From a bacterium (GTDB lineage: Bacteria; Arandabacterota; Arandabacteria; Arandabacterales; Arandabacteraceae), in assembly GCA_029933125.1 (NCBI GenBank), contig JAOZOU010000009.1, positions 10,194-74,193 of the forward strand: a stretch of DNA of 64,000 nucleotides, in the 5' to 3' direction. Below, one piece after another: positions 1,695-60,709 of the stretch (the first letter of the stretch is position 1; the number at the start of each line of letters is the position of its first letter). The notes below the pieces were generated by a model. That model searched no databases and was not told the origin of the DNA. It saw only the letters and a program-made list of their open reading frames with translations. The position numbers and the translations under genes were made by a program.

Positions 1695-1698
1695 TTAT

Positions 1699-10243: not shown

Positions 10244-10383
10244 GGGGTCGGAGCTAAAAATCGGCAAATCCCCCCAATTGGGGTCGGAGCTAAAAATCTG
10301 CATTCCAGCTTCTTTGGCACGGTCTGTGCAATTGCAAGTTAGGTGCCAGCCACGCCTTCGTGCACGTTTTTAGCTCCGACCCC
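10244..10383. repeat. repeat element locus 1: two direct copies of GGGGTCGGAGCTAAAAA core plus one inverted copy
   Basis: Core at 10244-10260 and 10280-10297 (direct), inverted copy 10365-10383; same core recurs at 43543-43732 and 53976-54066. Confidence 0.8.
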
Positions 10384-38621: not shown

Positions 38622-40055
38622 TCAGCTTCCTTGAATGGTATGGCCCTGTCTAAGGAGCGGCTCAACAACTTCAGGAGATAGCCTGATCATGCGATAAATC
38701 TGGACTCGGTGCATACGCTGCTTCCTCGGATTGATCCACTCCCAAACTATTTCACCGTCCGGAGTAACCTCAAATGCACGGCCTCGATCGCCCTCACAGA
38801 TGAGGGTGTTGCCATTGGCGAGGCGCTGGGCAGAGCCTTTCTCATAGGAGTAGAAACTCTCAGGTGGATCCCCAACATACTGCCATACGATCTCATAGGT
38901 GACCGGATCAAGCTCGATGACTCTTGAATAGCCTCTAACTGGTCCATTGTCAAAGATGAGGATGTGCCCATTGGCTAGCATTGTCGGATGGTGTGGCCAC
39001 TGGAGCTCGCCTTCTCCCCAAACCCAAAGAATCTCACGTGTATCCTTATCAAGAATTGCAATTTGATTTACATTTCGAAAGCATATGAGAAGATTCCCTG
39101 GCTTGAATCTTCTATCCTTAGCCAGAGCATTCTCTGGAAGCACCGTGACCGTATTCATGTGAAAATAATCGTAGATGTTCTTACCACTGCGTTTATAGAC
39201 CTCGAGTTTGCCAGGGACCGTTGCCTTGAAGGAATCAATACCCCCACGTCCTGATAGACTATCAATCAGATTGTCAAGGAAGGATCGTGTATCGAAGGCT
39301 TGCTTTATCTCATCAAGATGGTCATATGTTGACCAGCGACCAATCTCCTTACCATCGAGGGTGAGGTGAAGAATAGCTGCAAATCTGACCTGAAGTCCTC
39401 GATAGTTCTTGATGTCGCGTACAATTGTGTAAATTGTGCTATCCGGAGCAAGTGATGCCTCATGATGGGCAATGGCATCGACCTTCCAGATAAGATTTGA
39501 ATTCCAATCGAGACGCTTGATGTCCCTCATTCTGCTTACAACAATGACATCGCCATTGGGTAGCATGAGCGCAGGTGCCCATACCCAGTGACGCTTACGC
39601 TTCTCAGGGTAGTACCACCTGTGAACCATTTTCCCATACATGTCCATAAGATAGACCTCTGGCGAGATGGCTGAGCAAAAAATCTGATAACCGCGCCATG
39701 AGCGGAGGCTGTCATAGACAGTAACTCCCGAAGGGCCGCTCACTTTCTGGGGAGTCATCGTTGTATAAGGGATTGAGCGAAGACGTTCGAGCTTTCGCTT
39801 CAGATTCTGATCATTGTTAGTCTCACGAGGTGTGTTGCGGGCTAGGGATAGGATAATCACAGCTGCCAGACCCGATGCAACTGCAAGTGAGCCTATGAGC
39901 AGTCGTCTTCTCATTCTGCCTGGAGCCTCTCCTTTCAGGCGAATCTCGCTGAGATTTTCACTGATAACTTCGACAACTTCATAGCCAACTTCATCAAGAA
40001 GTTTCTGGCGAACTTTACCAAAATCATACCATTTGGAGCTAGCTGGTTTAAACAT
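38622..40055 (-). CDS. arylsulfotransferase (ASST)-like beta-propeller protein with N-terminal membrane anchor
   Basis: 477 aa; TM anchor RRRLLIGSLAVASGLAAVIILSLA; His-containing motifs HHPTMLANGHILIFDNG and AQRLANGNTLICEG reminiscent of ASST family; call is tentative. Confidence 0.45.
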   Translation of the reverse strand: MFKPASSKWYDFGKVRQKLLDEVGYEVVEVISENLSEIRLKGEAPGRMRRRLLIGSLAVASGLAAVIILSLARNTPRETNNDQNLKRKLERLRSIPYTTMTPQKVSGPSGVTVYDSLRSWRGYQIFCSAISPEVYLMDMYGKMVHRWYYPEKRKRHWVWAPALMLPNGDVIVVSRMRDIKRLDWNSNLIWKVDAIAHHEASLAPDSTIYTIVRDIKNYRGLQVRFAAILHLTLDGKEIGRWSTYDHLDEIKQAFDTRSFLDNLIDSLSGRGGIDSFKATVPGKLEVYKRSGKNIYDYFHMNTVTVLPENALAKDRRFKPGNLLICFRNVNQIAILDKDTREILWVWGEGELQWPHHPTMLANGHILIFDNGPVRGYSRVIELDPVTYEIVWQYVGDPPESFYSYEKGSAQRLANGNTLICEGDRGRAFEVTPDGEIVWEWINPRKQRMHRVQIYRMIRLSPEVVEPLLRQGHTIQGS

Positions 40056-40218
40056 TTCATTAGCACGGGGCTGTGAAGCAGCCGAATGCTTAGGATCTTA
40101 GTTCTTGTGAGCCAATTGCTATGGTCGGGATCTTTATAACATCTGAGGTGGTAAGTAAATAGGTGGTTACGAGTGCGAGGGGTTATGGGATGGCTTCGGT
40201 TAAGGGTACCAAGGGGGC

Positions 40219-40252
40219 GCAGGATGCCAAGGAGCGCAGGATGCCAAGGAGC
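40219..40252. repeat. perfect 17-bp tandem duplication GCAGGATGCCAAGGAGC x2
   Basis: Read directly at 40219-40235 and 40236-40252 in intergenic region between two reverse-strand genes. Confidence 0.6.
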
Positions 40253-40275: not shown

Positions 40276-42027
40276 TTATGGAGTGTGAGGGTATGAGGTG
40301 CCTGAGCAGTCTCTTGTGTCCTTGATATCGTCACGAGGTTTAAGTTCGAAGATCACATAGGAATATCCTATGTGATCCACGGGTTCATAGTTCTCTCTAA
40401 GCCACTTGTAGCGGTCGGGATCAAAGATACCAACAAGGTTGTTTACACTAACGACTATCTTGCCCGAATCAGGAAACTCAGGATGTAAGTACTTCTCGCT
40501 GAAGCGCCTGCGGACGCGTTTCATCCACCATTCTCCCTTCTCATAGTATGCATCTGGATGTTCTCGCAGATAGCGTTGGAGAGCATTTCTGTCCTGCCCC
40601 CAATCTATATTCGAATCAGCAAGCACTTTGTATGCCTTCTTGCGGTCCCAGACGAGTTCATTGAAGTAAGGGATGTAGTGAGGGAAATAGGAAAGAACCG
40701 AAACTGTCTGATAACAAATAAGAACGCCAAGCGCTGCAGTAAGCTTTGCTTGCCTCGGCAAGCCCTGCTTGAGCAAGCTTCCGCAGAAGACGTGCAGCAG
40801 GGGCAAAACGATCAGGAAGTGCCGAATGCCTATCTGGAGTTTGAAGAAGAAATTGAAATAGATGGCGAAGAAGACCATGGGAGCGACGAGGAAGAGCTCA
40901 TCTTCGAGAAAGCGATAGCGTTTTCGCCTTTTTGTATAGGCGACCATGGCGATTATGGCGATGGCCTGGGTAGCAAGGGGAACCTTAAAGAGATACGCAA
41001 AGAAATAGTAACCCTTGAAGCCACCAATTTCTTTGAGTCGCCCGAGAAGATACATCTTACCGAAGCCTTTGCCGGTTTCGGTCCGATAGATTCCCCAATC
41101 TATTCCTTCGAGATAGGGATATGGCAAAGGGAGAGGAAGTCTTGCAAGTTCTCCGAGGCGAGAGCGTAGGCTTTTGAAGGCGTCACTTCGCAGGGCATAG
41201 TCGTCGAGAGAGCTAAACGTACGGTTGAAGAGAAAAGCTGCATTTATGATAAGGATGCTTACAGCAATGAAAACAACTGTATAGAGCAAGGTGCGAAGCA
41301 AACCCTTTCGCATGGCTTTAAGATCTGCCTGCCTTGCCTGTCTCAGAATCTCAGGACTGTAGCGAATCGCAAGGATGATAGCCTCAAGGGGATAGAGAAG
41401 GATGCAAACATATTTAGAGATCTGACCCATCCCCAGAGCAACTGCTGCAAGGATGCCCCTTCGTGGTGAAGGATGTTTGGTGAATCTCCAGAGTGTCCAT
41501 AGGGAAACAAGTACCATACCTGCTGCATAGACATCTGTAGTTATGAGGCGTGCATGGGCAATCATATTGGGGCTTAAGGCAAAGAGTGTGAGTGAGAGGA
41601 TTGCTCCCTTTGTTCCGTAAAGTTCTCTACTCCAGGTGAAAACAACGAGAGCCACGATGACGCTAAGGATAATTGTTACATATCTGCCCGTGGGAACGGA
41701 TTTTAGAAACGCCTGGTATCTTGCTGCCGCCTTGAGCTCACCTATTTCGGCCGGCAATGCGTTTAGGGCTGTTATGGGCATCGTTCCATCAACGAAACGA
41801 GAGGAATTGCCCGATAGGATGCTGGCGCCATAGCGAAAGTGCCAGGGTTCATCCTGGGTAAGGGACTTATGGCGTATGCTAAGAACCTCAAGAGCAACCA
41901 TAAAGGATAAGAGACCAATTACGACCAGGATTGTTGATGTGGGAATGCGGTCTGCGAACTTTGCGTCGGAGAGGTCGCTGTTGTTCATAACAATATGAAG
42001 GTAAGCCAAAGCAAGGACATCTTTCAA
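40276..42027 (-). CDS. GT-C fold membrane glycosyltransferase (GT39/ArnT/PMT-like), second copy
   Basis: 583 aa multi-pass membrane protein; DE motif in first loop (LTQDEPWHF); start may be at a downstream Met. Confidence 0.6.
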   Translation of the reverse strand: MKDVLALAYLHIVMNNSDLSDAKFADRIPTSTILVVIGLLSFMVALEVLSIRHKSLTQDEPWHFRYGASILSGNSSRFVDGTMPITALNALPAEIGELKAAARYQAFLKSVPTGRYVTIILSVIVALVVFTWSRELYGTKGAILSLTLFALSPNMIAHARLITTDVYAAGMVLVSLWTLWRFTKHPSPRRGILAAVALGMGQISKYVCILLYPLEAIILAIRYSPEILRQARQADLKAMRKGLLRTLLYTVVFIAVSILIINAAFLFNRTFSSLDDYALRSDAFKSLRSRLGELARLPLPLPYPYLEGIDWGIYRTETGKGFGKMYLLGRLKEIGGFKGYYFFAYLFKVPLATQAIAIIAMVAYTKRRKRYRFLEDELFLVAPMVFFAIYFNFFFKLQIGIRHFLIVLPLLHVFCGSLLKQGLPRQAKLTAALGVLICYQTVSVLSYFPHYIPYFNELVWDRKKAYKVLADSNIDWGQDRNALQRYLREHPDAYYEKGEWWMKRVRRRFSEKYLHPEFPDSGKIVVSVNNLVGIFDPDRYKWLRENYEPVDHIGYSYVIFELKPRDDIKDTRDCSGTSYPHTP

Positions 42028-42179
42028 TCGCTTCCTTATACGGTCTCTACGAAAATCCCCCTCTCCGCTCTTCCCTTTGCTTCATCTCTGGCCCCCTACT
42101 GGCAGGATTGACCCATCCCAAGAGCTATGTTAGATTGGGAATTGGAGAGGATCAGTGTTTATACTCGAAGGGGGAAGTT

Positions 42180-43541
42180 TTGCGCAGATGGTTCTGGATT
42201 CTCGTTGTACTGGCGATTCTAACCTGCGCACGTGAGCCCAAGCCCAATGTGGTCATCGTTACGATCGATACACTTCGTGCCGATCATCTGAGCTGCTATG
42301 GTTATTCCAAGCCTACGAGCCCACGCATAGATGACTTCGCAGGCAGGGCTATCCTCTTTGAGAAAGCATTCTCACAGGCACCCCAAACGCTTCCATCGCA
42401 TGCGTCCATCTTTACAGGCCTGCATCCCCGCCACCACAAATCAATCACGCATGAAAGTCCTCTTGCCGATGATGTAACGACCCTCGCTGAGATTCTCAAA
42501 CATAAGGATTACGAGACTGCTGCCTTCATTAGCAGTCATGCCCTCGACAGCAAGTACAATCTGACTCAGGGATTCAATACCTATTGGGAGATTCAAAGGG
42601 AATACAGTGTCCCGGAACGCCAGAATGCACACCACTGGGGCAAGGATCTTACCACCGATGCTGTTCTTCGCTGGCTCAAGGAGCACCACAGCGACCGCTT
42701 CTTCCTCTGGGTACACTGGTTTCATCCTCATCGGCCTTACAATCCCCCAGAAGATTATCGAACGAGATTTGCTGGTCCCTATGAGGGCGATGCTAACAGT
42801 TCGCCCGATTTTATTATCACTGTGTGGCAAAACAAGATTGAACTCGCTGATGAAGATGTGGCTTACCTGAGAGGATGTTATGATGGGGAGGTAGCCTTCA
42901 CTGATTATCAGGTAGGAAGATTACTTGATGAGCTCACCTCACTCGGGCTCATGAACAATACAATAATCATTCTAACATCCGATCATGGTGAGATCCTTTA
43001 TGAGCATGAATATTACTTCGGACACGATATCGGACTTTATGATGAGTGTCTTTGGGTTCCTCTCATCTTCTATGGACCCGGCATTCTGGATGAGCATAAA
43101 CGTATAGATAAGCCTGTTGAGACAATCGACATCATGCCAACTGTGCTGGATCTCCTTGAGATAGCAAAGCCGCAAGGCATGGATGGTAAGAGCTTGCTTC
43201 CCCTCATTGCAGGTGGAAAGTTTGAGGGGTGCACCTATTTCTTCTCAGAGACATTTCCCTTCCCCGAGAAATCCTTGCCACGTCATGCAGTAAGAACGAG
43301 AACCGCTAAACTGATCTGGCGCGAGACAGCGACCGGTGGAATTGAGAAGCATTTCTTTGATCTTGTAAAGGATCCAGAGGAAACTGAGAACGTCTATGAC
43401 GTGAGCAATCCTGCCTGTGCACGCCTCGATTCAGTGCTTGGTGAATGGATCAAACCGGAGGGTCTTCATCCCGCACGCATCCCGAGTGCCCGCGAGTCGG
43501 GAAGGTGGCGCATCCTCAAAAGCCTCGGCTACGTCAACTAA
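42180..43541 (+). CDS. sulfatase-fold (alkaline phosphatase superfamily) enzyme with Thr at nucleophile position
   Basis: N-terminal metal-binding motif VTIDTLRADHLSCYGY; nucleophile motif reads T-L-P-S-H instead of C-x-P-x-R; TTG 42180 (MRRWFWILVVLAILTCA anchor) preferred over track TTG 42108. Confidence 0.65.
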   Translation: MRRWFWILVVLAILTCAREPKPNVVIVTIDTLRADHLSCYGYSKPTSPRIDDFAGRAILFEKAFSQAPQTLPSHASIFTGLHPRHHKSITHESPLADDVTTLAEILKHKDYETAAFISSHALDSKYNLTQGFNTYWEIQREYSVPERQNAHHWGKDLTTDAVLRWLKEHHSDRFFLWVHWFHPHRPYNPPEDYRTRFAGPYEGDANSSPDFIITVWQNKIELADEDVAYLRGCYDGEVAFTDYQVGRLLDELTSLGLMNNTIIILTSDHGEILYEHEYYFGHDIGLYDECLWVPLIFYGPGILDEHKRIDKPVETIDIMPTVLDLLEIAKPQGMDGKSLLPLIAGGKFEGCTYFFSETFPFPEKSLPRHAVRTRTAKLIWRETATGGIEKHFFDLVKDPEETENVYDVSNPACARLDSVLGEWIKPEGLHPARIPSARESGRWRILKSLGYVN

Positions 43542-43542
43542 C

Positions 43543-43732
43543 GGGGTCGGAGCTAAAAACCTCCAAATCACCCATTTTGGGGTCGGAGCTAAAAAAACGC
43601 AAATCACCCAAAATGGGGTCGGAGCTAAAAAAATGCAAATTGGCTGGAATTGCCTCTTCCACAAGGCCCATGGCTCCTTAACTCATTTACACACAAAGGG
43701 ATACGCGTGTGCAGATTTTTAGCTCCGACCCC
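43543..43732. repeat. repeat element locus 2: three direct 36-bp-unit copies plus inverted terminal copy (MITE-like arrangement)
   Basis: Core GGGGTCGGAGCTAAAAA at 43543-43559, 43579-43597, 43615-43633; inverted copy 43716-43732; the inverted copy overlaps the last codons of the DUF89 gene. Confidence 0.8.
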
Positions 43733-44591
43733 GGGTGAGGAGGTTGGAGGCGGTGGGGACGCCAAGACGTTCAGCAACTATGGGGCATTTGGCTTTGAGG
43801 ATAAAGAAGATTTGGCGCTCAGCGTCATCGAGAGTCTCATAATTTGCCTGCCCCTTGGATATCACCACACCAGCCTTAAAGAAAACATCCTTAAACTGGT
43901 CACTACATTCGCCGAGGATAATGCCGAGACTATCTGAGCCTGTCTCAATTATCTTTATCGGCTCACCAATTCCTGCTCTGATTGCATCTTCGTAAGTTGC
44001 GTCATTGAGAATGCCTCGGCTTTTCACACTCACATAGACATCCTTTCCACGACGCACGAACTCATCGAGCAGAAATCGGTCGAAGACGATCTCACCGGCA
44101 TTGTCACTTATGAGCAATATGTTCCTGGAGGCGATAACAGCTTCTAAGAGCTCCTCAGATTCATCAACCACAAGCTCCCCACTTATTGTTTCCCTGAGAG
44201 TTTTCTCAAGATCAAATTCGCTGCCGACACCAAAATCTATAATGTTACCCGCCGCAGCAAGCTTAACACAGAGCTTTATTCTGCCTACCTCATCAAGTTG
44301 CAAGAATCTCTTTTGAATTTCAGGCTTGATATGCTCGTACATCGCAAGAGCTTCGACAGTGGTTTCCCACTTTAGCTTCTCAAATGGATCAACATTGCTG
44401 AGCAAGTGATCACCTGAGCGAATTGCCCTTGTCGCAAGAATCGCCGGGGGCACACCGTGGTCGAGATCCATTAAGGCTTCCATCGCCTTACGAGCAATCT
44501 CAACCTGGCTATTCTCATCAAGTCCAGCAATCCTTGCTGTCCGTATAGCCTGTCTGACTGAACACGGAATGCACTCAGGGGAAGATTTCAC
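43719..44591 (-). CDS. DUF89/ARMT1-like damage-control phosphatase family protein
   Basis: 290 aa; signature ISKGQANYE and N-terminal Cys pair (PECIPCS). Confidence 0.7.
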   Translation of the reverse strand: MKSSPECIPCSVRQAIRTARIAGLDENSQVEIARKAMEALMDLDHGVPPAILATRAIRSGDHLLSNVDPFEKLKWETTVEALAMYEHIKPEIQKRFLQLDEVGRIKLCVKLAAAGNIIDFGVGSEFDLEKTLRETISGELVVDESEELLEAVIASRNILLISDNAGEIVFDRFLLDEFVRRGKDVYVSVKSRGILNDATYEDAIRAGIGEPIKIIETGSDSLGIILGECSDQFKDVFFKAGVVISKGQANYETLDDAERQIFFILKAKCPIVAERLGVPTASNLLTRGRS

Positions 44592-44601
44592 TTCTTGCTC
44601 C

Positions 44602-45885
44602 TCACGTTTTTTGTTGCTTCTTACGAGCCGCAGGGAAGAGAACGTTGTTTAGAATCAGCCGATAGCCAGGGGAATTCTTATGAAGTGCAAGATCCGTCGG
44701 TGGATCTCCAATCATATGCTGATAATCCTCGGGGTCATGGCCCCCATAAAATGTGAAGGTGCCACGTCCATAGGTTCCATGAAGATACTTGACCTCATCT
44801 TGCCCTTCGGTCTCAGCCAGAATCGTGACTGTTTTCTTTATCAGGTGCTTCTCGTATCCAGTTGTCTGCCCCATGAAACCCTTTATGACCGAGACATGAT
44901 TCTGCGTCAGCATAGTTGGAATGGGATCGTGTTTGGCTGAGAATTCAAAAAGTGTGAAGTAATCATTTGCCTGACCTCGCCTTGCCGCACGCGGGCTGGT
45001 ATCAATATCGGAATATTCGTAGACAAACGGATTGGGTATAACTTTAAAACCCGTGAAGCAAAGTGTTTTGGAATAGTCGAGTTTCTCCTGATAGTTGGGA
45101 TCTGGTGGATCACCATCAAAAACACTATCAACGATATCGTCATTTTCTGCAGCGAGAGCGATATCATAGGAATCGGTTGCTGAACACATCGCAAAAAGGA
45201 AGCCGCCCCTCGCCACATAATCTTTTATCCTCCTTGCAACAGCCTTCTTGAGTTCTGAAACTTTGCTAAAGCCCAGCTTATGGGCAAGCGCCTCAGATGT
45301 AGCCACCCGTTTCTTATACCAATCTGCATTACGATAGCTCGCATAGAATTTCCCATATTGACCCGTGAAATCCTCATGATGAAGGTGCAGCCAATCATAT
45401 TCGTCTAGTTTGCCAGCAAGTACTTCTTCATCATAGACGATGTCATAAGGTATCTCAGCATAGTCGAGTGCAAGTCTTACAGCATCATCCCATGGCTCAC
45501 GATCTGGTGGGACATAGACGGCAATAGCAGGAGCTTTCTCAAGAAGCACGACTTCCATATTCTCCTCTTCAATTGTTCTATATATCTTGGCAGCGTCACC
45601 TTCTGATATCACACTGTAACTAACGCCCATTAGGGTTGCCTTCCTCGCCATTACATCCCTTGCATCCACCATGAAGGATCCACCGCGATAGTTGAGCAAC
45701 CACTCAACGTTGAAGCCTTGCTCGAGACACCAATAGGCAAGCCCATAGGCTTTGAGGTGATCTGTCTGATTGAGATCCATATAGATAAGGATACGATCGG
45801 CTACCGCTGTCGCTGCAAGACCGAGGACAATGAAACAGACAAGAAGGACTTTAAGAATCTGATGATTGACTTGATCTAAGGCCAT
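44602..45885 (-). CDS. hypothetical exported protein (possible GATase1-like fold)
   Basis: 427 aa; N-terminal hydrophobic segment; no firm family; motif GGFLFAMCSATDSYD; start overlaps upstream TPR gene by 35 bp. Confidence 0.5.
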   Translation of the reverse strand: MALDQVNHQILKVLLVCFIVLGLAATAVADRILIYMDLNQTDHLKAYGLAYWCLEQGFNVEWLLNYRGGSFMVDARDVMARKATLMGVSYSVISEGDAAKIYRTIEEENMEVVLLEKAPAIAVYVPPDREPWDDAVRLALDYAEIPYDIVYDEEVLAGKLDEYDWLHLHHEDFTGQYGKFYASYRNADWYKKRVATSEALAHKLGFSKVSELKKAVARRIKDYVARGGFLFAMCSATDSYDIALAAENDDIVDSVFDGDPPDPNYQEKLDYSKTLCFTGFKVIPNPFVYEYSDIDTSPRAARRGQANDYFTLFEFSAKHDPIPTMLTQNHVSVIKGFMGQTTGYEKHLIKKTVTILAETEGQDEVKYLHGTYGRGTFTFYGGHDPEDYQHMIGDPPTDLALHKNSPGYRLILNNVLFPAARKKQQKT

Positions 45886-47674
45886 CTATCTTCCTCCTCG
45901 CCTCACCTGCCGCAACACTTTCGGGAAAGCGCAGAATAAGATCCTCATATGTCTCCTTCGCCTTTTCAATCTCATCAAGCTCAACATAGATGTCAGCAAT
46001 TGCCTCAAGTGCAGCTGGTGCTATATGACTTGCGAGGCTGTCAGCTATTACTCTGTAGATCGCGATCGCCAGGTTGGGGTTACCAGCCCTACGATAGATC
46101 TCAGCTAGTCTTCTCAGACTTTCAACCTTGATAGGTTTCAATTGAATCTTGCTAAGACTAAGATATCTATCCTTTGCCTCCTCGATGCGTCCCCGCCTCT
46201 CGAGAAGATAAGCCTGCGCGAGTTGTCCAAGCTCCTGGGGGTACTTCTCGCCAGCCTTGCTTGCCCTTATCAGCATCAGCCTTTCAATGCAGTCGTTGGC
46301 AAGATCCTCCTGGGGATATTGCCTCAAAGCGACATTGTAATAGGATACTGCTTCATCAAACTTTCCCTCATACAAACTTATCTCGCCAAGATTGTAGAAT
46401 GCCTCCTGAGCAAGTGCGCCTTGCCATTCAATCTCAACAAGATCATATGTCTCGAAAGCTTTCTCAAGATCACCAAGTTTTACAAGGCAGTCCCCTTTGA
46501 TATTGACAGCCCTCGCAAGCAACTCAGGTGATCTGGTATTGCTTATAACCTTATCAGCCTCCTTAACTGCATTTTGAAAATTGTCACTGTTGTAATAGAT
46601 ATCAGCGCGAGCAAGCACAGCATCCCATGCCCACTTGGTTCCCACAAAACGGTCTACCAGATCTTGATACGTCTTCAAGGCGTCCTCAACATCATTGCCA
46701 AGGTACTCACATTGCGCTTTCTTGAGAAGAACATCAGCCAGATTTAGGCCGGATTGCTTAAGCTTTGCAACCAGTTCATATGCCTTAGCACACTCCTCAA
46801 AACAGCCTCTCCTCGTTGCCTCTCGAGCAAACAGGGGCAGACTGCGCGCTAACTCGCGTTCGTTGCCAGCGCCGGCTTGGATCTCCTCAAGCGCAGCCTT
46901 GCAGTTGCCATCCAGAAGATAAAGTTGCCAGAGTACTCGACTGACGACGTCTGCAAATTCCTTGCGAGATTTTTCAGCAACAAGAGCACTTATGACCTCA
47001 GCCCTGGCTTCATCATCACTGGCAAGATCAAGAATCTTCTGAGCAAACCTTTGAGGTACCCCCTTCTCACCTCCTCGGTTCTCGCTTGCAAATCGCAGCA
47101 GATACTCATGGACTGCATCACCAACCCTGCCTGCGTCGATATAAAGACGAATAGCTTCAGGCCCGAAAAGGGTGGAATCCCCGGTCGCCTTCCGAGCTCT
47201 TGTGATAATATCTATCACACCTTCCCTATCCCCGATCTCCGCAAGCACATTCATTGCAAGGGTGTAAGTCCATTCCTCATCGGGTGCAGTCGAGATTATT
47301 TTCTCAAGAATCTCCATCCCCCTTTTCGTGTTACCCTTGAGGAAGCTTACAAGTGCAAGTTTTGCTTTCAGCGCATTCTCATTGGGGTGATTCTTAAGAA
47401 AAGAGGAGAGTATCTTTTCAGCCTTTGAATAGTTGTGTGTCTCTATCAGAACATCTGCGTAGACTCTGACAACCGTAGCATCATCACTTGCTTTCCTGTA
47501 AAGTGCGTCCAGCTCGGCGAGAGCCTTATCAATCTTGCCCTCAGAAAGGTACCTTCGCGCAGTTGCTAAGCTGCGATCCCTTGTCTGCGGTGTAACATCA
47601 GCCGCCAGGCAAGTCCCAACAGCAAGCAAGACAAAAGCAAATGTAAGAGTGGCACAAAACAATTTCTTCATCAC
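45851..47674 (-). CDS. TPR-repeat protein with signal peptide
   Basis: 607 aa; signal peptide MMKKLFCATLTFAFVLLAVGTCLA; multiple TPR-like helical repeats; 4-bp overlap with upstream gene. Confidence 0.7.
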   Translation of the reverse strand: MMKKLFCATLTFAFVLLAVGTCLAADVTPQTRDRSLATARRYLSEGKIDKALAELDALYRKASDDATVVRVYADVLIETHNYSKAEKILSSFLKNHPNENALKAKLALVSFLKGNTKRGMEILEKIISTAPDEEWTYTLAMNVLAEIGDREGVIDIITRARKATGDSTLFGPEAIRLYIDAGRVGDAVHEYLLRFASENRGGEKGVPQRFAQKILDLASDDEARAEVISALVAEKSRKEFADVVSRVLWQLYLLDGNCKAALEEIQAGAGNERELARSLPLFAREATRRGCFEECAKAYELVAKLKQSGLNLADVLLKKAQCEYLGNDVEDALKTYQDLVDRFVGTKWAWDAVLARADIYYNSDNFQNAVKEADKVISNTRSPELLARAVNIKGDCLVKLGDLEKAFETYDLVEIEWQGALAQEAFYNLGEISLYEGKFDEAVSYYNVALRQYPQEDLANDCIERLMLIRASKAGEKYPQELGQLAQAYLLERRGRIEEAKDRYLSLSKIQLKPIKVESLRRLAEIYRRAGNPNLAIAIYRVIADSLASHIAPAALEAIADIYVELDEIEKAKETYEDLILRFPESVAAGEARRKIDGLRSSQSSDS

Positions 47675-50600
47675 TTCGCCTCTTTCCCCGCCGCAATTGC
47701 CTCAAGGTAGGCTCTTATGAGATTCTCATATTCAGGTGGATAGTAGCCCTTCTTGCGATAGAGCATGTCCTGAAGAAACCTTTCTCTTTCCTCAAGCGAA
47801 AGCTCTGGCGGCGGTTTAATCTCATATTCTCCACCAGGTCTCGATTGACGCCTCCTCGAATAGTCTCTTCGCCTCAATGATTTTTGTGCATTGAGCAATC
47901 GGGTGAGAATCTTCTCCTGACGGCGTATTGTTTCCTCATCCACATGTTGATTCTTAAGATCATCAACAACTTTACGAGCTTCCTCTGCAAGATCGTCCAA
48001 TCTGCCAAGGATCTCACTTCGACCCCTAAGCTCCCGAGCAATATCTTCGATCCCTTTTCTCACAGTCTCCTGCTCCGCTGCAAGCCGAGCCATCTGAGCA
48101 CGCTGCTCCATAGAGAGCCCTCCCTGACTCAGATCCTGCAACTGCTGTGTCCCCATGTTGATTCCCATCTGCATGCAACACATGCTCTCAAGATTCTTGA
48201 AGGTTTCGCACAATCCACTCGGCGATGAGCAACTACTTGCCTGATCCATTGCATCCATGAGTGCTGTAACAAGCTGATTCATCTTACCCAGAGCAGCTCT
48301 ACCTTGCTGCCTGGCAAGTCCGGGCTTCTGCTGAGCAATGATTTCAGATGTACTCTCAAGATCTTTTGCTATCTGAAGAACAGCTCCGCCAAGGCGTGGA
48401 CCGATAAAGAGACTCTTGCGGGCTGCCTTGAAAATGTGATCGGCAACACGATCAAGCGCTTCCTTGTAGATAACCTCACGTCTGGCAAGATCCGAAAGCC
48501 TCTTCCCACGAGTTGTATCAATCTCAGCAAGGACCTCTTCATGGCGTTGCGATACATCTCTAAGTACATCGATGGCATTTCTGAGAGCTTCCATGAGGGC
48601 CCTCTTATCCTCACCCATAAGAGCATCGCGTGTGGTTTGAAGCATCATGGCGAGTTTAGCCATATCGACTTCAGCCTGCTTACCTTGTGCACTCGCTTCA
48701 GCCTGATTGCCAGCCTGCATCGCGGACATAGCCATTGACATCGAGCCCGAAATGTTTTGGGCCTTCAGGAATTCGCCCGCCTTGCGGATCTCTCCCTCGA
48801 GAGGATTACCCTGCTCCTTGAGAAGTTCGGCGAGCTGGTTCATCATCTCCTCAAGCGCATTTGTCTTATCAATTAGAGCCTTCTCCTTTGAAGCCGCCTC
48901 CTTAAGATCGCCACCCTCTTCAATCTTCTTGTTGAGCCCGCTCTGCTCATCTGCTATCTGCTTTGCAAGATTGGTGACGGCCTCCATCCTTTGTTGTAAT
49001 TTCATCTTCTTCAGGAGCTCAATTGTCCTATCGAGACGCCGCAGAAGATCCTCCTGAGATATGTTGAAGTTCTCCATCGCCTGTCTTATTTCCTCAGGTG
49101 AGAGCTGCTGGAGGGCTTGCTGCATCTTCTCAATAGCCTTGAGTAATTCCTCAGACGCAACCTCATTTATGAGCTGCCTCACCTCTTCCATCTTCTCAAT
49201 TATTTCAAAAGTGATGAGATTATTTTCGTTCATGCGGTTGAGTGTTTCATCGAGAGATGCTGAAATATCCTCGAGGCGATCAAGAAGTTCCTTGTGCTTC
49301 TCAAGATTCTGCTCGAGGGCTTGTTGCTCCTCCCATCCAACTTCTGACTTGCGCTTCATGTTTTCGATGAGATTGTCGATTTCCTCCTTAAGCTCGGAAG
49401 CTTCATCAGCAACCTCTTCCAGCTCACCGATATCCTGCTCCTGCTCATTCTCAATAGCCTGGTAAATCTCATGGATGGCCGGAACCTTGAATGTATGGAC
49501 ATCGCTCTTTGCATACTTGGGACCTTTGAGAGCATCGTTGTCAGCCACAGCAACCCAATAGGTCACAACGTCTCCAGGGAAAAGATTCAGTTCACTCACA
49601 TTCCAATCAAGATCTGCTCTTGCATGAGTGGTGCCTTTGAAATCGAGGGCTATGGATGAAGTCTCTGAAGGCGCAGCATAGTGAAGTCGCATCTGCGATA
49701 TGCCATAGTCATCAACAGCCACAACTGAAAGGGGGACAAGCATGTCAGCCTCAAGCATCATCTCTTCCTGCGGGCTTTCGATGCGAACGTAGGGTGGATC
49801 ATCAGGGACAACATTGATCGTGTGAGGCCCGTGGGGCTCGGAACTAAGCCCACCGGCTGCAAGGTTAATGGTGTATGATAGGTTCTCATGTATGGTCACC
49901 GAGATTGCCAGGGAGTCTTTGCGCTCGACGAGCTTCAGACGGTGCTGCTTCGGCTTGTTATCTTCTATTGTGAGCCAAGCGCTGTCAGGTTCACAATTGG
50001 CTTCAAGCAGGAATTGGACACGTGTACCATAGGGAGCAGTTATATCCCAGATTCCTTTGGGGAGGATCTGTTCATCTCTACCTGTGTAGGCTGGATAAGT
50101 GAGTTTAACTATGCCTCCGACTATTCTGGGTTTCTCATAGACTGAGATTGCATAGGTCGTACTCCTCTCATCTCCGTAAGTGACAAAGTAAGCTATGTCC
50201 CTGTCAACGCTTGGCAAGATGGTTGCGAAAACTCGCTTAGCCTTGCCCTCGGATTCAGCGAGATTCATTTCAAAGGCTGTCTCTGCACCATCTTGAAGCA
50301 TGTGAAGCGTGGCTCTTCCTGGGGTGAAGCCTGTAATCTCAGCCGAAACTGTGAGGCTATCGCCGGCAAGCATCTTGTGGTTACCAGGGCTTACCCGGAG
50401 TTCAATTCCACTTGAAGGCGTAAGAGCAAGGAAATATCCGAATCGCTCAAGGGAGTAGGAAAGAGTTGGGGAATCGTAGCTTCTCCAGGCAGCTGCAAAT
50501 GCAACTGTGGCGAGCAAGGGAATAGCCCAGAGAAGCAATCTCTTCTGACTTGCTATTACATCAATGCGCACACTTTCTATCTTCTGGTTTATATCCTCAA

Positions 50601-50991
50601 GCACTCGCTTGATGAGGATATTGGAATAGCCAAGGCGCTCACTATCAACCTCACTGAGCTCAAGAGCGGTTAAGACATCGTGCCCGATCTCTCGGAGCTC
50701 AGAAGCTATGCGAGCAGCATAGGCTTTTAGGGAATGGGAAACGGAAAAAACCCTTACCATCCCATAGACAAGCCCCGCAAATGCGCTGACTGCCGAGACA
50801 AGGGCAAGCAATCTCAACCACATCCTCGCAATTCCAAAGCCTAAGTCAAGAAAACTTGTCACAAGCCACCCGAAGCCCAAGATGGTGCAAGCGATGACAA
50901 TCGCAGTTGCAACTGCAATGAGAATGCTTTTAAGCCTGACCCTCTCAAGTCTGGAAACTATTTTCTCGATCGGTCCGTAGCGGGTTGGCAT
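47671..50991 (-). CDS. large membrane-anchored coiled-coil protein (DUF4175-like)
   Basis: 1106 aa; N-terminal TM helices, long E/K/L/Q-rich coiled-coil region, C-terminal YPPEYENLIRAYLEAIA motif; family call from memory, tentative. Confidence 0.5.
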   Translation of the reverse strand: MPTRYGPIEKIVSRLERVRLKSILIAVATAIVIACTILGFGWLVTSFLDLGFGIARMWLRLLALVSAVSAFAGLVYGMVRVFSVSHSLKAYAARIASELREIGHDVLTALELSEVDSERLGYSNILIKRVLEDINQKIESVRIDVIASQKRLLLWAIPLLATVAFAAAWRSYDSPTLSYSLERFGYFLALTPSSGIELRVSPGNHKMLAGDSLTVSAEITGFTPGRATLHMLQDGAETAFEMNLAESEGKAKRVFATILPSVDRDIAYFVTYGDERSTTYAISVYEKPRIVGGIVKLTYPAYTGRDEQILPKGIWDITAPYGTRVQFLLEANCEPDSAWLTIEDNKPKQHRLKLVERKDSLAISVTIHENLSYTINLAAGGLSSEPHGPHTINVVPDDPPYVRIESPQEEMMLEADMLVPLSVVAVDDYGISQMRLHYAAPSETSSIALDFKGTTHARADLDWNVSELNLFPGDVVTYWVAVADNDALKGPKYAKSDVHTFKVPAIHEIYQAIENEQEQDIGELEEVADEASELKEEIDNLIENMKRKSEVGWEEQQALEQNLEKHKELLDRLEDISASLDETLNRMNENNLITFEIIEKMEEVRQLINEVASEELLKAIEKMQQALQQLSPEEIRQAMENFNISQEDLLRRLDRTIELLKKMKLQQRMEAVTNLAKQIADEQSGLNKKIEEGGDLKEAASKEKALIDKTNALEEMMNQLAELLKEQGNPLEGEIRKAGEFLKAQNISGSMSMAMSAMQAGNQAEASAQGKQAEVDMAKLAMMLQTTRDALMGEDKRALMEALRNAIDVLRDVSQRHEEVLAEIDTTRGKRLSDLARREVIYKEALDRVADHIFKAARKSLFIGPRLGGAVLQIAKDLESTSEIIAQQKPGLARQQGRAALGKMNQLVTALMDAMDQASSCSSPSGLCETFKNLESMCCMQMGINMGTQQLQDLSQGGLSMEQRAQMARLAAEQETVRKGIEDIARELRGRSEILGRLDDLAEEARKVVDDLKNQHVDEETIRRQEKILTRLLNAQKSLRRRDYSRRRQSRPGGEYEIKPPPELSLEERERFLQDMLYRKKGYYPPEYENLIRAYLEAIAAGKEAK

Positions 50992-51203
50992 CGGCTACCT
51001 CTGTTGTTATATCTGGCTGCTACCGCTGTTGGCCAGCCCCTTGGGCGTGTCTATTACCAGGCCTTATAGATACCTCTCTAGCATATGTCCATTGGTCATT
51101 GAGTGCTTCATCGGTGCCACACAGGCGCACCTTAAAATTAGTGGTCTCGCATGAAATCTGTGCCCGTGCTTCACCAAACTCCTCTAAGATGCACCTAACC
51201 TAT

Positions 51204-51872
51204 CTAATGAGTGAGTGCATAGGCGACTATGTTGATTGCCATCTTCATCGCAGCTTCACGCTTCTCAGGTGGATCGTGGTGAACCTCAGCATCCTCGAGC
51301 CCACAGCCTATGTCAGTATTATACGAGTAGAAAACGACAAGCCTGCCGTTGTGGATGATACCATAACCATGCGGTGGACCGCCATGGTGCTCATGTATTT
51401 TAGGAAGTCCTGAGTTGAAGTCGTAGACCATGTGATAGATTTCATGGTCAAAAGGCAATTCAACGAGCTCGTCATCTGGGAAGACCTTGCGGATCTCACG
51501 CCGGAAATACTCATCCATACCATAGCAATCATCCGCCCACAGGAACCCTCCTGATTCAAGATAAAGCCTGAGTTTGGCAGCTTCCTCACCCGAAAATTTC
51601 ACCTTACCATGACCAGTCATGTAGATGAAGGGATAAGCGAAAAGGTGTTCGTCGAGAAGGGTTACTCGAGCCTCTTCACCAGTCGGTATTCCTAGGACCT
51701 TTTCAACCTGAGTAAGGAGATTGGGAAGCGATGTGGGATCGGTATACCAATCGCCACCACCCCGGTACTTGACCCTCGCAATTGTGAACTCGCCGGGACG
51801 GGCCTCTGCCATGGCAGCTTGAGATGTGGTGAGCAAGAGCAAGATGGCCGCTACAACGAATTTTCTTAGCAT
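51204..51872 (-). CDS. DUF4159-like exported protein
   Basis: 222 aa; signal peptide; motifs RVKYRGGGDWYTDP, FIYMTGHGKVKFSGEEAAKLRLYLESGGFLWADDCYG, HDPPEKREAAMK; tentative family assignment from memory. Confidence 0.5.
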   Translation of the reverse strand: MLRKFVVAAILLLLTTSQAAMAEARPGEFTIARVKYRGGGDWYTDPTSLPNLLTQVEKVLGIPTGEEARVTLLDEHLFAYPFIYMTGHGKVKFSGEEAAKLRLYLESGGFLWADDCYGMDEYFRREIRKVFPDDELVELPFDHEIYHMVYDFNSGLPKIHEHHGGPPHGYGIIHNGRLVVFYSYNTDIGCGLEDAEVHHDPPEKREAAMKMAINIVAYALTH

Positions 51873-51906
51873 CTGCTACAGTTAAACCCCTTAAATAGCC
51901 TACCTC

Positions 51907-51936
51907 AATATAATTTGATGTTTGGAACTAAGTCAA
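51907..51936 (-). promoter_or_regulatory. candidate sigma70-type promoter for the DUF4159 operon (TTGACT-18 nt-TATATT on reverse strand)
   Basis: Reverse-strand TTGACT (51936-51931), 18-nt spacer, TATATT (51912-51907), about 35 nt upstream of ATG 51872. Confidence 0.3.
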
Positions 51937-52865
51937 CCAGCGTGAATCCACATTGTGTCTTCCCGAATTATGAAACCCCTGAAGGAGAACAAGCGTTCCC
52001 GTGGTTGGCGTTTCGGTCCTTTCGGTGAGATTCGCTGGCTGGGGTGCGGCTGGGTGAATCAGACTTGCCGGAGGCTAGCTGGAGACCTGGGGCTTGCGGA
52101 CTGGGTGGATCAGGCTTGCTGGAGCTGCCCGGGATAAGCGGCTGAGTTACGAGGGATGCGCCTCCTATACCATTGCCGTACTGTCTTGGCTCGTCCAATT
52201 CTCCCCTTTTCGTATCTCATCCATTTTGCTGTCTCATCTCTTCCTTCCGCCTCATCTTCTCCATTCCACCCTCCCCAATATATCACCTTTTGCCTCTCGT
52301 CCTTTCTCGTGTCATCTTGCCATCCTTTATCATCTTGCCTCTCTCTGTTGTGCAAGCCAATTGTCATCCTGGCAAACTCAACTCATGGCTCCTTTCGGCC
52401 TCGTCCTTTTGCAATTGTCCTCTTGCCACGCGCCCTCCCCAGCGCCCTCCCCCCGACCTCCACGCTCTCATCCTCTTGCCCTCGTCCGACTGAGCAGTAC
52501 CAGCCTGGCTCTAATGCTTAACACCCTGGTTTGAATGGCTTAGCCAGCAATCATGAGCCAGTGCTCGCGCAATCACCATCCAGCAATTGCCACCTATGCC
52601 ATCCAAATGTAGCGAATTGGCTCCACCGCATGAATGCACCTCGCACCCCATCCGTCTTGAGAAAGCAAGAATGAGACCTGTGACAGGTTAGCGGTTAGCC
52701 AGGGTCTTGGACAGTAATCAGATTCGCAGGTGGATAACCCTTGGAAAAGCCTTAATGTCGAGCAAAAGCCATCGAATGCAATCTAAAAATTCATAACACG
52801 ATCCGGGTGGCACGGAAGGGGGGCAAGAACATGCCCTCAGCCACAGCCTAAAGCCTCCAGATAGC

Positions 52866-53177
52866 CTAAAACAGGCCCTGATCATCCTCAGTATCGAGGA
52901 GATCCATCAACTCCATGTCGATGTAATCTTCTGATTCTAAGTCCTTCTCGCTTTCCTCCAATTGATCCCTTTCATTGTAGCAATCTTCACAATAAATCTC
53001 TCCAGCCTCCTCGATCTGACAAAGTTTGCACAGTGGCACTCCACAAACACAACAGATAGAGTCGGCATCTGCTTTCGGATGAAAGTGACACTTCACGTTG
53101 CCCACCCCCTCAGGCGGTGCCACCTCGGCACCTGGTTTTCTCGCAATCCCATTAATACCAACCCCATCGCTTGTCAA
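52866..53177 (-). CDS. small B-box-type zinc-finger protein with acidic C-terminal tail
   Basis: 103 aa; CHFHP...CCVCGVPLCKLC...YCEDC cysteine/histidine arrangement; C-terminus rich in D/E. Confidence 0.5.
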   Translation of the reverse strand: MTSDGVGINGIARKPGAEVAPPEGVGNVKCHFHPKADADSICCVCGVPLCKLCQIEEAGEIYCEDCYNERDQLEESEKDLESEDYIDMELMDLLDTEDDQGLF

Positions 53178-53269
53178 GAGGAATATTTTGCTCGGTTTTG
53201 GGCTGCTTAGCGAGGCTTAGCAATCACATGGGGCGATGGGAAGGAGTCTGCGGGATTCAAAGCTCGGCC

Positions 53270-53839
53270 TCAGGCTTTTCCTGCGATGACAAGATAGTGG
53301 TAGGAGCTAATCTCGAGGTTTTTCTCTACCGAAAAGGAGGCTGCTTCTAGATATGCTGTCAGCTCATCTGGCGAGATTCTCACCCCGAGTGGTGGACCAG
53401 GGGGCCCCTCTATCTTCTTAAACTCGACTATCATGAATCTCCCAGATGGCTTGAGAATTCTCGAAACCTCTCTCACCGTTGAGATGCGATCTCCATCTTG
53501 GAGAATGTCATGGAGCACTGTGAAAGCAAGAGCAACATCGATGCTTCCGTCACTCAGGGGAATTCGCGATCTTATATCAGCGACAATTGGTATCACATTC
53601 TCAACACAATTGCGAGCCATCTTCTCCTTCAACATCCTAATTCCTTCCTCCCAGAGATCGATGGCAAATACAAGGGCACGTCCCGATAGGTTTCGAGCAA
53701 CAGCGAGTGCGTATTCTCCAACGCCGCACCCAAGATCTGCAACCTTAAGATCCTTGCCGATGGCGAGCTCGGCGAGCAAGCGCTCGGAGTCGATCAGACC
53801 AAAACTGCTTCTCCCTGCCCCTCTTGGCTTATCTTGCAT
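53270..53839 (-). CDS. class I SAM-dependent methyltransferase
   Basis: SAM-binding motif VADLGCGVGEY, motif II/III region (VDVALAFTVLHD, ILKPSGRFMIVEF); start at internal Met preferred (track 53947). Confidence 0.75.
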   Translation of the reverse strand: MQDKPRGAGRSSFGLIDSERLLAELAIGKDLKVADLGCGVGEYALAVARNLSGRALVFAIDLWEEGIRMLKEKMARNCVENVIPIVADIRSRIPLSDGSIDVALAFTVLHDILQDGDRISTVREVSRILKPSGRFMIVEFKKIEGPPGPPLGVRISPDELTAYLEAASFSVEKNLEISSYHYLVIAGKA

Positions 53840-53975
53840 GATCCGTAACCTCGGGACAATCTCACGAGGTGGTTGCCATCGCGAGATTATCTTTGTGACG
53901 CTAACGTAAACTTTTGCTTGGTGCGCGTCAATCGTTTGGAGGTACAAGGCTCAAAGCCAGAGGAGCGAGATTGCA

Positions 53976-54066
53976 GATTTTTAGCTCCGACCCCAAAATC
54001 AGCAATTTGAAGATTTTTAGCTCCGACCCCAAAATCAGCAGTTTGAAGATTTTTAGCTCCGACCCC
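53976..54066. repeat. repeat element locus 3: three tandem 36-bp units containing the same 17-19 bp core, reverse orientation
   Basis: GATTTTTAGCTCCGACCCC at 53976-53994, 54012-54030, 54048-54066 with near-identical 17-bp spacers; lies between divergent genes. Confidence 0.8.
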
Positions 54067-54111
54067 GAGGGGGGTTGACAGGGTGGGGCGTGGCTCTTAG
54101 CATAGGGTTGT

Positions 54112-60548: not shown

Positions 60549-60709
60549 TCTGCGTCCTCCGAGAGTCTTCGATTGCAATAGTCGTGCCAGCAATCTCAGC
60601 CATCTCCCTTCTCTAAGGGGCTATCAAACATAGACTTACCCATAGGTATGATTCGACACCCATAATAAATGTCTTAAATGAAAGCCAAGATGTCCACCAA
60701 AAGGTACAT

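Follow-up and report, generated by a model that had tools for sequence, protein, structure and literature searches.

Locus 2, the 190-bp segment at positions 43543-43732 of a 64,000-nt stretch of bacterial chromosome (contig JAOZOU010000009.1 of assembly GCA_029933125.1, positions 10,194 to 74,193; the whole stretch is called the window here), is a copy of a dispersed, lineage-restricted, non-coding repeat family with an invariant core. Many members of this family carry a sigma-54 promoter module, while the copy at locus 2 does not. This copy is a derived insertion at a place where two convergent genes originally abutted or overlapped, and it has replaced the C-terminal tail of one of them, a DUF89 gene. 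The lineage is that of an uncultured sediment bacterium, and the evidence consists of genome fragments and sequence comparison. [quoted passage not shown]

Bacterial genomes are shaped by short dispersed repeats, at which assemblies break and rearrangements start and which relocate promoters and alter the ends of genes; in uncultured phyla, such repeats are almost unstudied. In the present family, the supply of gene stops (to 13 open reading frames, ORFs), breaks in synteny and contigs, and sigma-54 promoters at a fixed register are seen together. Sigma-54 promoters need a dedicated activator and are usually thought to be hard-wired to regulons. If they are copied on a small repeat, this would provide a route to new enhancer-dependent genes or to antisense transcription. 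Furthermore, the 17-nt core can be used as a lineage marker, and it accounts for the fragmentation of the metagenome-assembled genomes (MAGs) of this lineage.

Architecture of the element at locus 2

Locus 2 lies between convergent sulfatase and DUF89/ARMT1-like phosphatase genes (Table 1). Three direct units follow one another head to tail with a period of 36 nt, the third extending at full period over 43615-43650, and each of them opens with an exact copy of the 17-mer core GGGGTCGGAGCTAAAAA. Units 2 and 3 are 81% and 69% identical to unit 1. An exact inverted copy of the core is found at 43716-43732, 84 nt beyond the last direct core. The inverted arms are 100% complementary over 17 nt and 91-92% complementary when extended to 23-24 nt. 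Only spurious overlapping ORFs occur within the element, which is thus non-coding. The DUF89/ARMT1 reading frame ends with ...ACC CGG GGT CGG AGC TAA, and the inverted core holds its stop codon TAA (43721..43719) together with the last three and two-thirds codons.

This layout agrees with the initial annotation, made from the letters of the sequence, which had described three tandem 36-bp core-bearing units (here at 43543, 43579 and 43615), about 80 bp of unique sequence (72-84 nt of unrelated filler) followed by an inverted core, terminal inverted repeats around an element of roughly 190 bp, and an overlap of the inverted copy with the last DUF89 codons.

The 17-mer occurs exactly 10 times in the window, as against 0.15 occurrences expected from shuffled sequences. 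No copies with one to three mismatches are present in the window. A profile built from 88 family units recovered the same ten cores there and nothing weaker, that is, no degenerate or decayed copies.

Table 1. Repeat units, promoters and adjoining genes in the window
Feature	Position	Strand	Description
Direct unit 1, locus 2	43543..43578	+	core 43543-43559 and 19-nt semi-conserved spacer CCTCCAAATCACCCATTTT
Direct unit 2, locus 2	43579..43614	+	core 43579-43595 and spacer AACGCAAATCACCCAAAAT
Innermost direct unit, locus 2	43615..43637	+	core 43615-43631 and tail AATGCA; no sigma-54 motif after it
Interior filler (72 nt), locus 2	43638..43709		unlike the interiors of other copies and of the orthologous element in L117/L118
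Single inverted unit, locus 2	43710..43732	-	core 43732..43716 and tail TCTGCA 43715..43710; no sigma-54 motif after it
Sulfatase gene	42108..43541	+	stop codon one base ahead of unit 1 (start 43543)
DUF89/ARMT1-like phosphatase gene	43719..44591	-	Pfam domain ends at residue 283 of 290; tail ...RGRS* from the repeat core
Family locus 1	10244..10383	+	FFR: direct units at 10244 and 10280, interior, inverted unit 10367-10383
Sigma-54-type promoter TGGCACggtctGTGCA	10315..10330	+	18 nt past the core at 10280; faces NFACT start GTG 10393
Sigma-54-type promoter TGGCACctaacTTGCA	10333..10348	-	18 nt past the inverted core; faces the direct units and the reductase gene 3' end
Family locus 3	53972..54066	-	three direct units (cores 54050, 54014, 53978) in a divergent intergenic region; no inverted partner
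17-mer cores	10244, 10280, 10367-, 43543, 43579, 43615, 43716-, 53978-, 54014-, 54050-		exact matches; a trailing minus marks the reverse strand

Insertion at the sulfatase/DUF89 junction

Five relatives share the gene order of the window, in which genes for DUF4159, a large protein, a TPR protein, a 427-aa protein and DUF89 follow one another and the sulfatase gene converges on the last of them (contigs fetched for comparison are designated by L and a number). In four of them the junction is empty. The two genes overlap by 13 nt in L116, where DUF89 is 83% identical to that of the window (84% by BLASTP) and no unit occurs in 6 kb. They are separated by 3 nt in L119 (DUF89 65% identical), by 84 nt of unrelated sequence in L120 (64%) and by 21 nt in L121 (61%); these last three contigs contain no unit in 52 kb. 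The junction is filled in the window and in L117/L118 (DUF89 77.5% identical), where the element has the mirror orientation. Because the junction is empty in four relatives, the segment at locus 2 is an insertion and not ordinary intergenic DNA. The resemblance between AGCCCCCCTCG in the empty L116 junction and the core is too weak to be used as a relic of a unit.

In L118, the sulfatase TAA-ccct is followed by a single unit with a sigma-54 promoter, 125 nt of other sequence and three inverted units, the last of which also supplies the DUF89 tail, here ...WGRS*. Beyond the units, the interiors of the window and L117/L118 elements do not align in either orientation. The DUF89 identity matrix groups the sequences as ((window, L116), L118), (L119, L120), L121. 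On this grouping, one gain followed by a loss in L116 and two independent gains are equally parsimonious, and a single inversion between the outermost cores would interconvert the arrangements of the window and L118. The ancestral junction is without the element in every history considered.

Distribution and anatomy of the family

A scan for the exact core in one genome per species gave matches on 10 contigs of the MAG JALGWB01 ("bacterium Meg22_1214_Bin_137"), on contigs of an Acidobacteriota MAG, and scattered single matches that look like chance. A metagenome scan yielded 83 stretches with the core, many of them with the same extended unit, arrays and inverted pairs. Most of the metagenome stretches come from a few sediment-type samples (Ga0164310/11/18, Ga0180300, Ga0190336/61). 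The fetched loci and the window hold about 100 family-type units. No match to the core was found in viral contigs or in the plasmid collection. The Logan contig L032, from another run, is 100% identical to window positions 43602-54004 and ends inside the arrays on both sides, which indicates that the arrays are real and that they break short-read assemblies.

The unit consists of the invariant, non-palindromic 17-nt core and an NNTGCA tail, 23 nt in all (23-mer GGGGTCGGAGCTAAAAACGTGCA), and units inside arrays run on as gcTGCAAAtCCCC...TTT until the next core. The spacing between units falls into classes of 26-29, 36-37, 47 and 94 nt. Copies occur as solo units, as direct arrays of two to three units (period 26-29 or 36-37 nt), or as an array with one inverted unit, from which it is separated by 6 to about 170 nt of filler. 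There are 19 non-redundant composite copies of 49-264 bp, including two in the window. Each is laid out as F(n)R or FR(n): one to three direct units (F) form one end, and a single inverted unit (R) forms the other; locus 2 is of the type FFFR. Between dispersed copies, only the units are alike, plus the promoter where present, and interiors are mutually dissimilar across the family.

A short variant of the element is found directly after a transfer RNA (tRNA) gene, where a unit is paired with a truncated inverted half (L039 215-260, L049 1803-1848, L115 1398-1443; L015 2500). It reads GGGGTCGGAGC, a 13-nt loop, GCTCCGACCCC and then TTTT, and with its 11-bp stem has the look of a canonical terminator. 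This site is conserved between contigs that share 70-96% identity; L015 has a decayed second arm.

Some contigs from different samples have one flank that is 98-100% identical up to a core, after which the sequences diverge. L088 resembles a join, inside the core, of the left part of L034 and the right part of L097 (L088 1-174 versus L034 1628-1801; L088 156-1624 versus L097 333-1800), and the homology between L070 (position 1538) and L118 (position 10861) ends within the outermost unit. Such breaks reflect either recombination at cores or chimeric assembly. The 17-mer is also found in gut Clostridia contigs (L003 5010, L010 302/411/3668, L044, L052, L068, L074, L101), where a hairpin with an AT stem upstream of dnaK, GATGATTTT-GGGGTCGGAGC-TAAAAATCATC, contains it in the loop region; sister hairpins carry GGGGCCGGAGC. 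This is probably a chance match unrelated to the family.

A sigma-54 promoter module at a fixed register

Units with a cgTGCA tail often continue with 12 variable bases and then TGGCAC-N5-TTGCT/A, 18 nt from the core. The latter is the canonical -24/-12 sigma-54 promoter. The strict motif is present at exactly 18 nt in 17 of the 42 cg-tailed units and in none of the 58 others, and it occurs 23 times in total on both strands of 490 kb of family loci. Since the bases between the conserved promoter elements vary from copy to copy, with a few recognizable sub-families, the sigma-54 promoter elements are individually conserved. Ten of 14 non-redundant promoter-bearing units point into the composite, toward the inverted unit(s). 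Some of the unit promoters then reach a gene, such as a comM/yifB-like gene, an accC-like gene (both assigned by eye from translations) or an ORF for a putative lipoprotein. Others are directed, in antisense, at a gene that converges on them, as with DUF89 in L118. Genes for sigma-54 activators exist in the lineage, as two Sigma54_activat matches are found among the neighbouring ORFs.

At locus 2 no sigma-54 promoter is found. The sequences 18 nt past the cores are TTGCCTcttccACAAG and TTTGTGtgtaaATGAG, with TTGCCT...ACAAG and TTTGTG...ATGAG at the expected promoter register. At locus 1, GG and GC elements 10 nt apart (TGGCAC-N5-TTGCW) are present on both strands, at 10315-10330(+) and 10348-10333(-). 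These two promoters face each other and share a perfectly palindromic centre (10315-10348: TGGCACggtctG-TGCAATTGCA-agttaGGTGCCA), a design that recurs at L035 1134-1236. In such a face-to-face pair, no more than one promoter could be occupied at any moment. At locus 3, the degenerate motif TGGCTTtgagcCTTGT is found 18 nt after the units, without the GC element.

Two further contigs are worth describing here. L113 contains at 1503-1886 (-) the 3' end of a sigma-54 activator gene, with a GNVRELRN motif and a Fis-type helix-turn-helix (by eye). After it, at 623-1233, a unit and a sigma-54 promoter precede an ORF of 148 aa for a putative lipoprotein, which an inverted unit follows, so that this module is a gene bracketed by inverted cores. 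In L070, a 76-codon glutaredoxin/NrdH-like ORF at 1121-1351 (-), MKKVTVYTQPG-TGA-VFCIG..., shows a TGA in frame at the place of the first Cys of its CxxC motif. This ORF, a candidate selenoprotein gene, is located downstream of the repeat element and its sigma-54 promoter.

Placement next to genes and pattern of constraint

At 24 of 75 outer unit boundaries, an ORF that reads into the unit stops within 10 nt. The unit's own TAA is used by 13 of these 24 ORFs, which consequently end in ...GRS*; examples are DUF89 (window and L118) and a fructose-bisphosphate aldolase/phosphatase-like gene (by eye) in L051. Unit placement is filtered by selection. The 150 neighbouring ORFs match 202 Pfam families, mostly with housekeeping functions, and this diversity fits a dispersed element and not a regulon.

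All 10 cores in the window are identical, while the interiors are unrelated. Genomes that share only 72-77% DNA identity in their orthologous genes also have identical cores. L070 and L118 are 95.4% identical, and all eight substitutions within the element fall in the interior of about 100 nt, a ninth being found in the sulfatase coding flank. None occurs in the remaining 113 nt, made up of 53 nt of unit and promoter and 60 nt of the two inner inverted units. The distribution of these substitutions and the identity of the cores point to constraint on the units and not on the interior. Units are kept at orthologous sites in sequence pairs that are 70-90% identical, namely at the post-tRNA site and in L016/L062, L020/L047 and L100/L102.

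Predicted structure and transcript ends

For both strands of 43530-43750, the predicted structure is a long hairpin with the core arms as its closing stem (-78.9 and -86.1 kcal/mol; z = -4.1 and -6.6). This strong paired structure is due to the inverted repeat itself. A terminator scan of 43300-44000 finds no intrinsic terminator, and no sigma-70-type promoter was called at locus 2. With Rfam 15, no match in the window reaches the gathering score, and the sole match in 43450-43850 is a chance one (E = 0.68). An intrinsic terminator has a short GC-rich stem-loop with a U-tract right behind it. A canonical terminator at locus 2 is thereby ruled out, given that the scan finds none and that there is no U-tract, and so is a known RNA family.

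Proposed mode of action and alternative explanations

The core is non-palindromic, invariant and used in both orientations, and is for these reasons probably the recognition site of a protein. A trans-acting protein would recognize the core and thereby keep it identical; it might be the enzyme responsible for copying or recombining the module, or else a DNA-binding protein of the host. Units or composites could be copied or recombined in trans. As a subset of units has a portable sigma-54 promoter at the 18-nt register, the family would be able to spread promoters, and at locus 2 the promoter would have been lost or never acquired. Both convergent transcripts probably end in a stem of 17-23 bp that would function as a 3' barrier or stabilizer and not as a canonical terminator. 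According to the predicted fold, a long hairpin at both convergent 3' ends is likely to be the present effect of the element at locus 2.

The initial annotation had seen in the layout a fit with a MITE or, alternatively, with a structured terminator or small RNA module. The idea of a terminator is not borne out by the scan or by Rfam, and that of a small RNA lacks both a promoter at locus 2 and an Rfam match. The MITE interpretation stands in part. The additional copies, the inverted repeats, the strong predicted pairing on both strands and the empty sites speak for it. The missing duplication and conserved interior speak against it, as does the lack of a matching transposase among the recurrent families beside the units on the genome fragments covered. 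The most distinctive trait of the family, the sigma-54 promoter at a fixed register in other copies, lay beyond what that annotation could show.

Several observations weigh against the interpretation as a mosaic mobile repeat, or against a role of its hairpin. No target-site duplication flanks any of the 19 composites, and none is apparent in the comparison of empty and filled junctions. The unrelated interiors of the copies are unlike what is seen in a recently amplified MITE family. Among the Pfam families matched by more than one of the 150 neighbouring ORFs, all on genome fragments, no transposase or recombinase family occurs. In solo units, a stop codon lies against the GGGG side 12 times and against the tail side at most once, an orientation bias that random insertion does not predict. 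The retention at orthologous sites and the lack of decayed copies in the window are easier to reconcile with a cis element under host selection than with one that is purely selfish. As to the hairpin, the stem at locus 2 has a loop of 72-144 nt and is not followed by a T-run on the plus strand. Moreover, arm variants such as GCT/GCC are uncompensated in the other arm and give no covariation support for a hairpin role, indicating that the sequence is kept and the pairing is not. The missing duplications, the unconstrained interiors, the lack of decayed copies and the solo-unit bias keep the rival explanations alive.

The core could be a host cis-regulatory site that binds a protein tied to sigma-54 transcription, for example as an upstream activator, architectural or insulator site at -61 to -39. 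Arrays would then be multi-site enhancers or insulators, and locus 2 an array placed between converging transcription units. The promoter at a fixed 18-nt register, the sigma-54 activator gene just upstream of the unit, promoter and gene module in L113, the perfect conservation of the core with no decayed copies, the persistence of units at orthologous sites at 70-90% identity, the bias in how solo units are oriented to the gene upstream and the spacing classes about 10 nt apart (26-29, 36-37 and 47) would all be accommodated. Sigma-54 activator sites are typically found at -80 to -150, as dimer sites, whereas the core is non-palindromic and far nearer the promoter. More than half of the units, including all four at locus 2, have no sigma-54 motif, and some promoters are directed into the 3' end of a converging gene (in L118 into DUF89, and from 10348(-) in the window into the reductase gene). 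The neighbouring genes are functionally incoherent, and four relatives with the same genes lack the element at the junction. A host regulatory site is, on this balance, unlikely. An invertible promoter switch (inverton), in which a trans-acting site-specific recombinase flips the interior, together with any sigma-54 promoter in it, at the inverted cores and locus 2 is a switch that lost its promoter, seems very doubtful. The non-palindromic core resembles the sfx sites of the shufflon, the same inverted repeat is found at many loci around short variable interiors with a promoter beside one repeat, and the lineage apparently belongs to the Fibrobacteres-Chlorobi-Bacteroidetes (FCB) group, judged from a type IX secretion system (T9SS) sorting domain. 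On paper, one inversion at the outermost cores would turn the arrangement of the window into that of L118 and back, but in none of about eight near-identical contig pairs is the interior found in the opposite orientation. Similarly, the recombinant junctions inside the core (L088/L034/L097 and the L070/L118 breakpoint) would suit a recombinase, but chimeric metagenome assembly at repeats explains them as well. Interiors of 6-15 nt (L016, L064, L086, L034) are too short for inversion, face-to-face double promoters (window locus 1 and L035) do not suit a switch, many units stand alone, and neither the recurrent Pfam families beside the units nor the window includes a recombinase gene. It could further be imagined that a recombinase or transposase acting in trans uses the core as its handle and transfers, and perhaps also flips, portable sigma-54 promoter cassettes around the chromosome, with a site shared with an Acidobacteriota MITE (see below) and with locus 2 as a spent cassette. 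This is speculative and improbable; if true, there would be a dedicated promoter-delivery or switching system for an enhancer-dependent sigma factor, and spread across phyla would be implied.

There is, in our view, only a slim chance that the element is primarily an RNA element, the core pair being a bidirectional 3'-end hairpin (a terminator or stabilizer resembling repetitive extragenic palindromes, REPs) or part of a small or antisense RNA. Such an element would explain the strong predicted stem on both strands, the units directly after stop codons and the terminator-like variant after a tRNA gene (L039, L049, L115), and the sigma-54 promoters of some copies would transcribe the antisense strand of the arrays. 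It is difficult to reconcile with the many solo units that are unable to pair, with arm differences that are uncompensated, so that sequence and not pairing is conserved, and with the lack of a terminator after arrays downstream of promoters. Locus 2 itself has no promoter, no called terminator or U-tract and no Rfam match. As to chance similarity or an assembly artefact, metagenome assemblers do break or mis-join at such repeats, and L032 ends inside arrays on both sides. Ten exact 17-mers were found where 0.15 are expected, a second, independent assembly of this organism agrees to 100% over 43602-54004, with as much of both arrays as it reaches, and the family is present in many independent assemblies. 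An artefact can hardly be entertained.

Other features of the window

The neighbours of locus 1 are genes for an aldo/keto reductase and for NFACT/RqcH, both in the same direction; the closest homologues of NFACT are at most 53% identical. An NFACT homologue labelled Eisenbacteria adds to the T9SS sorting domain as a basis for placing the lineage, probably, in the FCB group. Locus 3 forms the edge of a 2.2-kb segment (window 51873-54111 versus L118 2322-2947; a class I methyltransferase gene and two small ORFs) that is absent from L118, and it lies directly against the TTGACA-N17-TAGCAT promoter of a thioredoxin-like gene. The L118 orthologue of this gene has the same promoter and no units.

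The rest of the window is ordinary chromosome, with dnaB, coaBC, gmk, gcpE, secDF and a large T9SS-sorted repeat protein. Neither transposase or recombinase genes nor tRNA genes or Rfam families were found in it. A canonical sigma-54 motif, TGGCACgactaTTGCA, is present at 60574-60589 (-), away from any repeat unit. It lies in the stretch from secF to the 5' end of an unannotated 203-aa ORF (59982-60593) and may be a genuine sigma-54 promoter that is independent of the units. A 1404-aa ORF (12122-16336) with BNR/beta-propeller matches and a C-terminal T9SS sorting domain contains, at 13908-16100, over 10 tandem copies of a 150-nt (50-codon) repeat that are 75-81% identical. At 40217-40252, between the ORFs 38622-40055 and 40276-42027, a 17-nt sequence (GCGCAGGATGCCAAGGA) is perfectly duplicated in tandem (2.1 copies).

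Comparison with known repeat families

Some superficially similar systems were considered and set aside. CRISPR arrays have repeats of 23-47 nt and unique spacers of similar length, often with cas genes close by. A CRISPR-like mini-array (short palindromic repeats, clustered and regularly interspaced) does not fit a 17-nt invariant part with 19-nt spacers that are alike within and across loci (CAAATCnCCC), and the window has no cas genes. Iterons or a replication origin do not fit three loci in 64 kb of ordinary chromosome without a rep gene. The ends of Tn3-type elements (GGGG...TAAG with a 5-bp duplication) have no counterpart, as both the TAAG and the duplication are missing. A likeness of the core to the 5' half of tRNA, together with the placement after a tRNA gene, found no support and was dropped.

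MITEs are small (under about 500 bp) and non-coding, with terminal inverted repeats, a target-site duplication, dispersed copies that are similar over the whole element, and a cognate autonomous insertion sequence that has the same inverted repeats and a transposase. Locus 2 and its family share with them the size, the non-coding nature, the terminal inverted repeats and the presence or absence at orthologous sites (empty in L116, L119, L120 and L121, filled in the window and L118). Without target-site duplications or a conserved interior, and with no transposase among the recurrent families beside the units on the genome fragments covered, the element is not a textbook MITE. Correia elements of Neisseria (CREE/NEMIS, Correia repeat enclosed elements or Neisseria miniature insertion sequences) and the enterobacterial ERIC/IRU elements (enterobacterial repetitive intergenic consensus or intergenic repeat units) are about 100-160 bp long and intergenic, with inverted repeats of approximately 20-26 nt (see also PMC3488235). 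Like the present family, they are short and dispersed, lie at or overlap gene ends, can carry promoters and form long transcript hairpins (PMC3488235), and the propagation of promoters by repeats is an established general idea (PMC3488235). The Correia element has a conserved interior, a TA target duplication, parts of sigma-70-type promoters and a site for integration host factor. In the present family, by contrast, the interior is unconstrained, duplications are absent, a direct array lies at one end, and a subset has a sigma-54 promoter at a fixed register.

The BOX elements of Streptococcus pneumoniae are built as boxA-boxB(n)-boxC. Variable tandem internal units (45 nt for boxB, 36 nt here), pairable ends and a dispersed intergenic location are common to both; the BOX modules have three different sequences, whereas here a single core is used in both orientations, and there is no sequence similarity. 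A REP is an imperfect palindrome of 20-40 nt with a 5' GTAG-type motif, and the gene for the REP-associated tyrosine transposase (RAYT) is flanked by REPs. The core GGGGTCGGAGCTAAAAA has no internal dyad and no GTAG, and no RAYT/Y1 transposase is found among the recurrent Pfam families of the 150 unit-neighbouring ORFs. REPs, BIMEs and REPINs (REP doublets forming hairpins), which RAYT transposases mobilize, are dispersed mosaics of short units in both orientations, extragenic and often between convergent genes, with a conserved unit, variable linkers and no target duplications (PMC2817692); apart from the RAYT, all of this is seen in the present family as well.

Sequence likeness to another family is found in the Acidobacteriota MAG CAVUJZ01, where a conventional MITE-like family has the same 17-mer in both terminal inverted repeats (L012 3300-3745 and 6557-6573; L022 6702-6976; L023 1365-1591 and 3792-4117; L031 793-1165). 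These elements are 227-373 bp long, with a conserved and deletion-prone interior, and have neither tandem units nor a sigma-54 motif; their inverted repeat extends outwards as GGGARAAAnT and inwards as ATCAAA. A match of 17 nt is unlikely to be due to chance, which suggests a shared recognition sequence or horizontal spread. By-eye inspection of the ORFs near L012 revealed toxin-antitoxin-like genes and none that resembles a transposase of an autonomous parent.

The invertible promoters of Bacteroides and the R64 shufflon use a shared asymmetric inverted repeat at many loci, with a short promoter-bearing segment. The family has in common with them the asymmetric site and the single inverted repeat at many loci, and differs in that no inversion is observed in near-identical contig pairs, no recombinase was found, interiors are short and solo units exist. 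On symbiotic plasmids of Rhizobium, reiterated nifH-type (sigma-54) promoter repeats precede unrelated genes, so that there, too, copies of a sigma-54 promoter are found in several places. These are longer duplications of promoter regions, without the architecture of inverted repeats and tandem units. In the paper library searched, the core sequence led to unrelated eukaryotic papers and to no report of the repeat, and sigma-54 promoters on such elements gave no match. The family is previously undescribed and of a known general kind, and its modular design and sigma-54 module are unusual.

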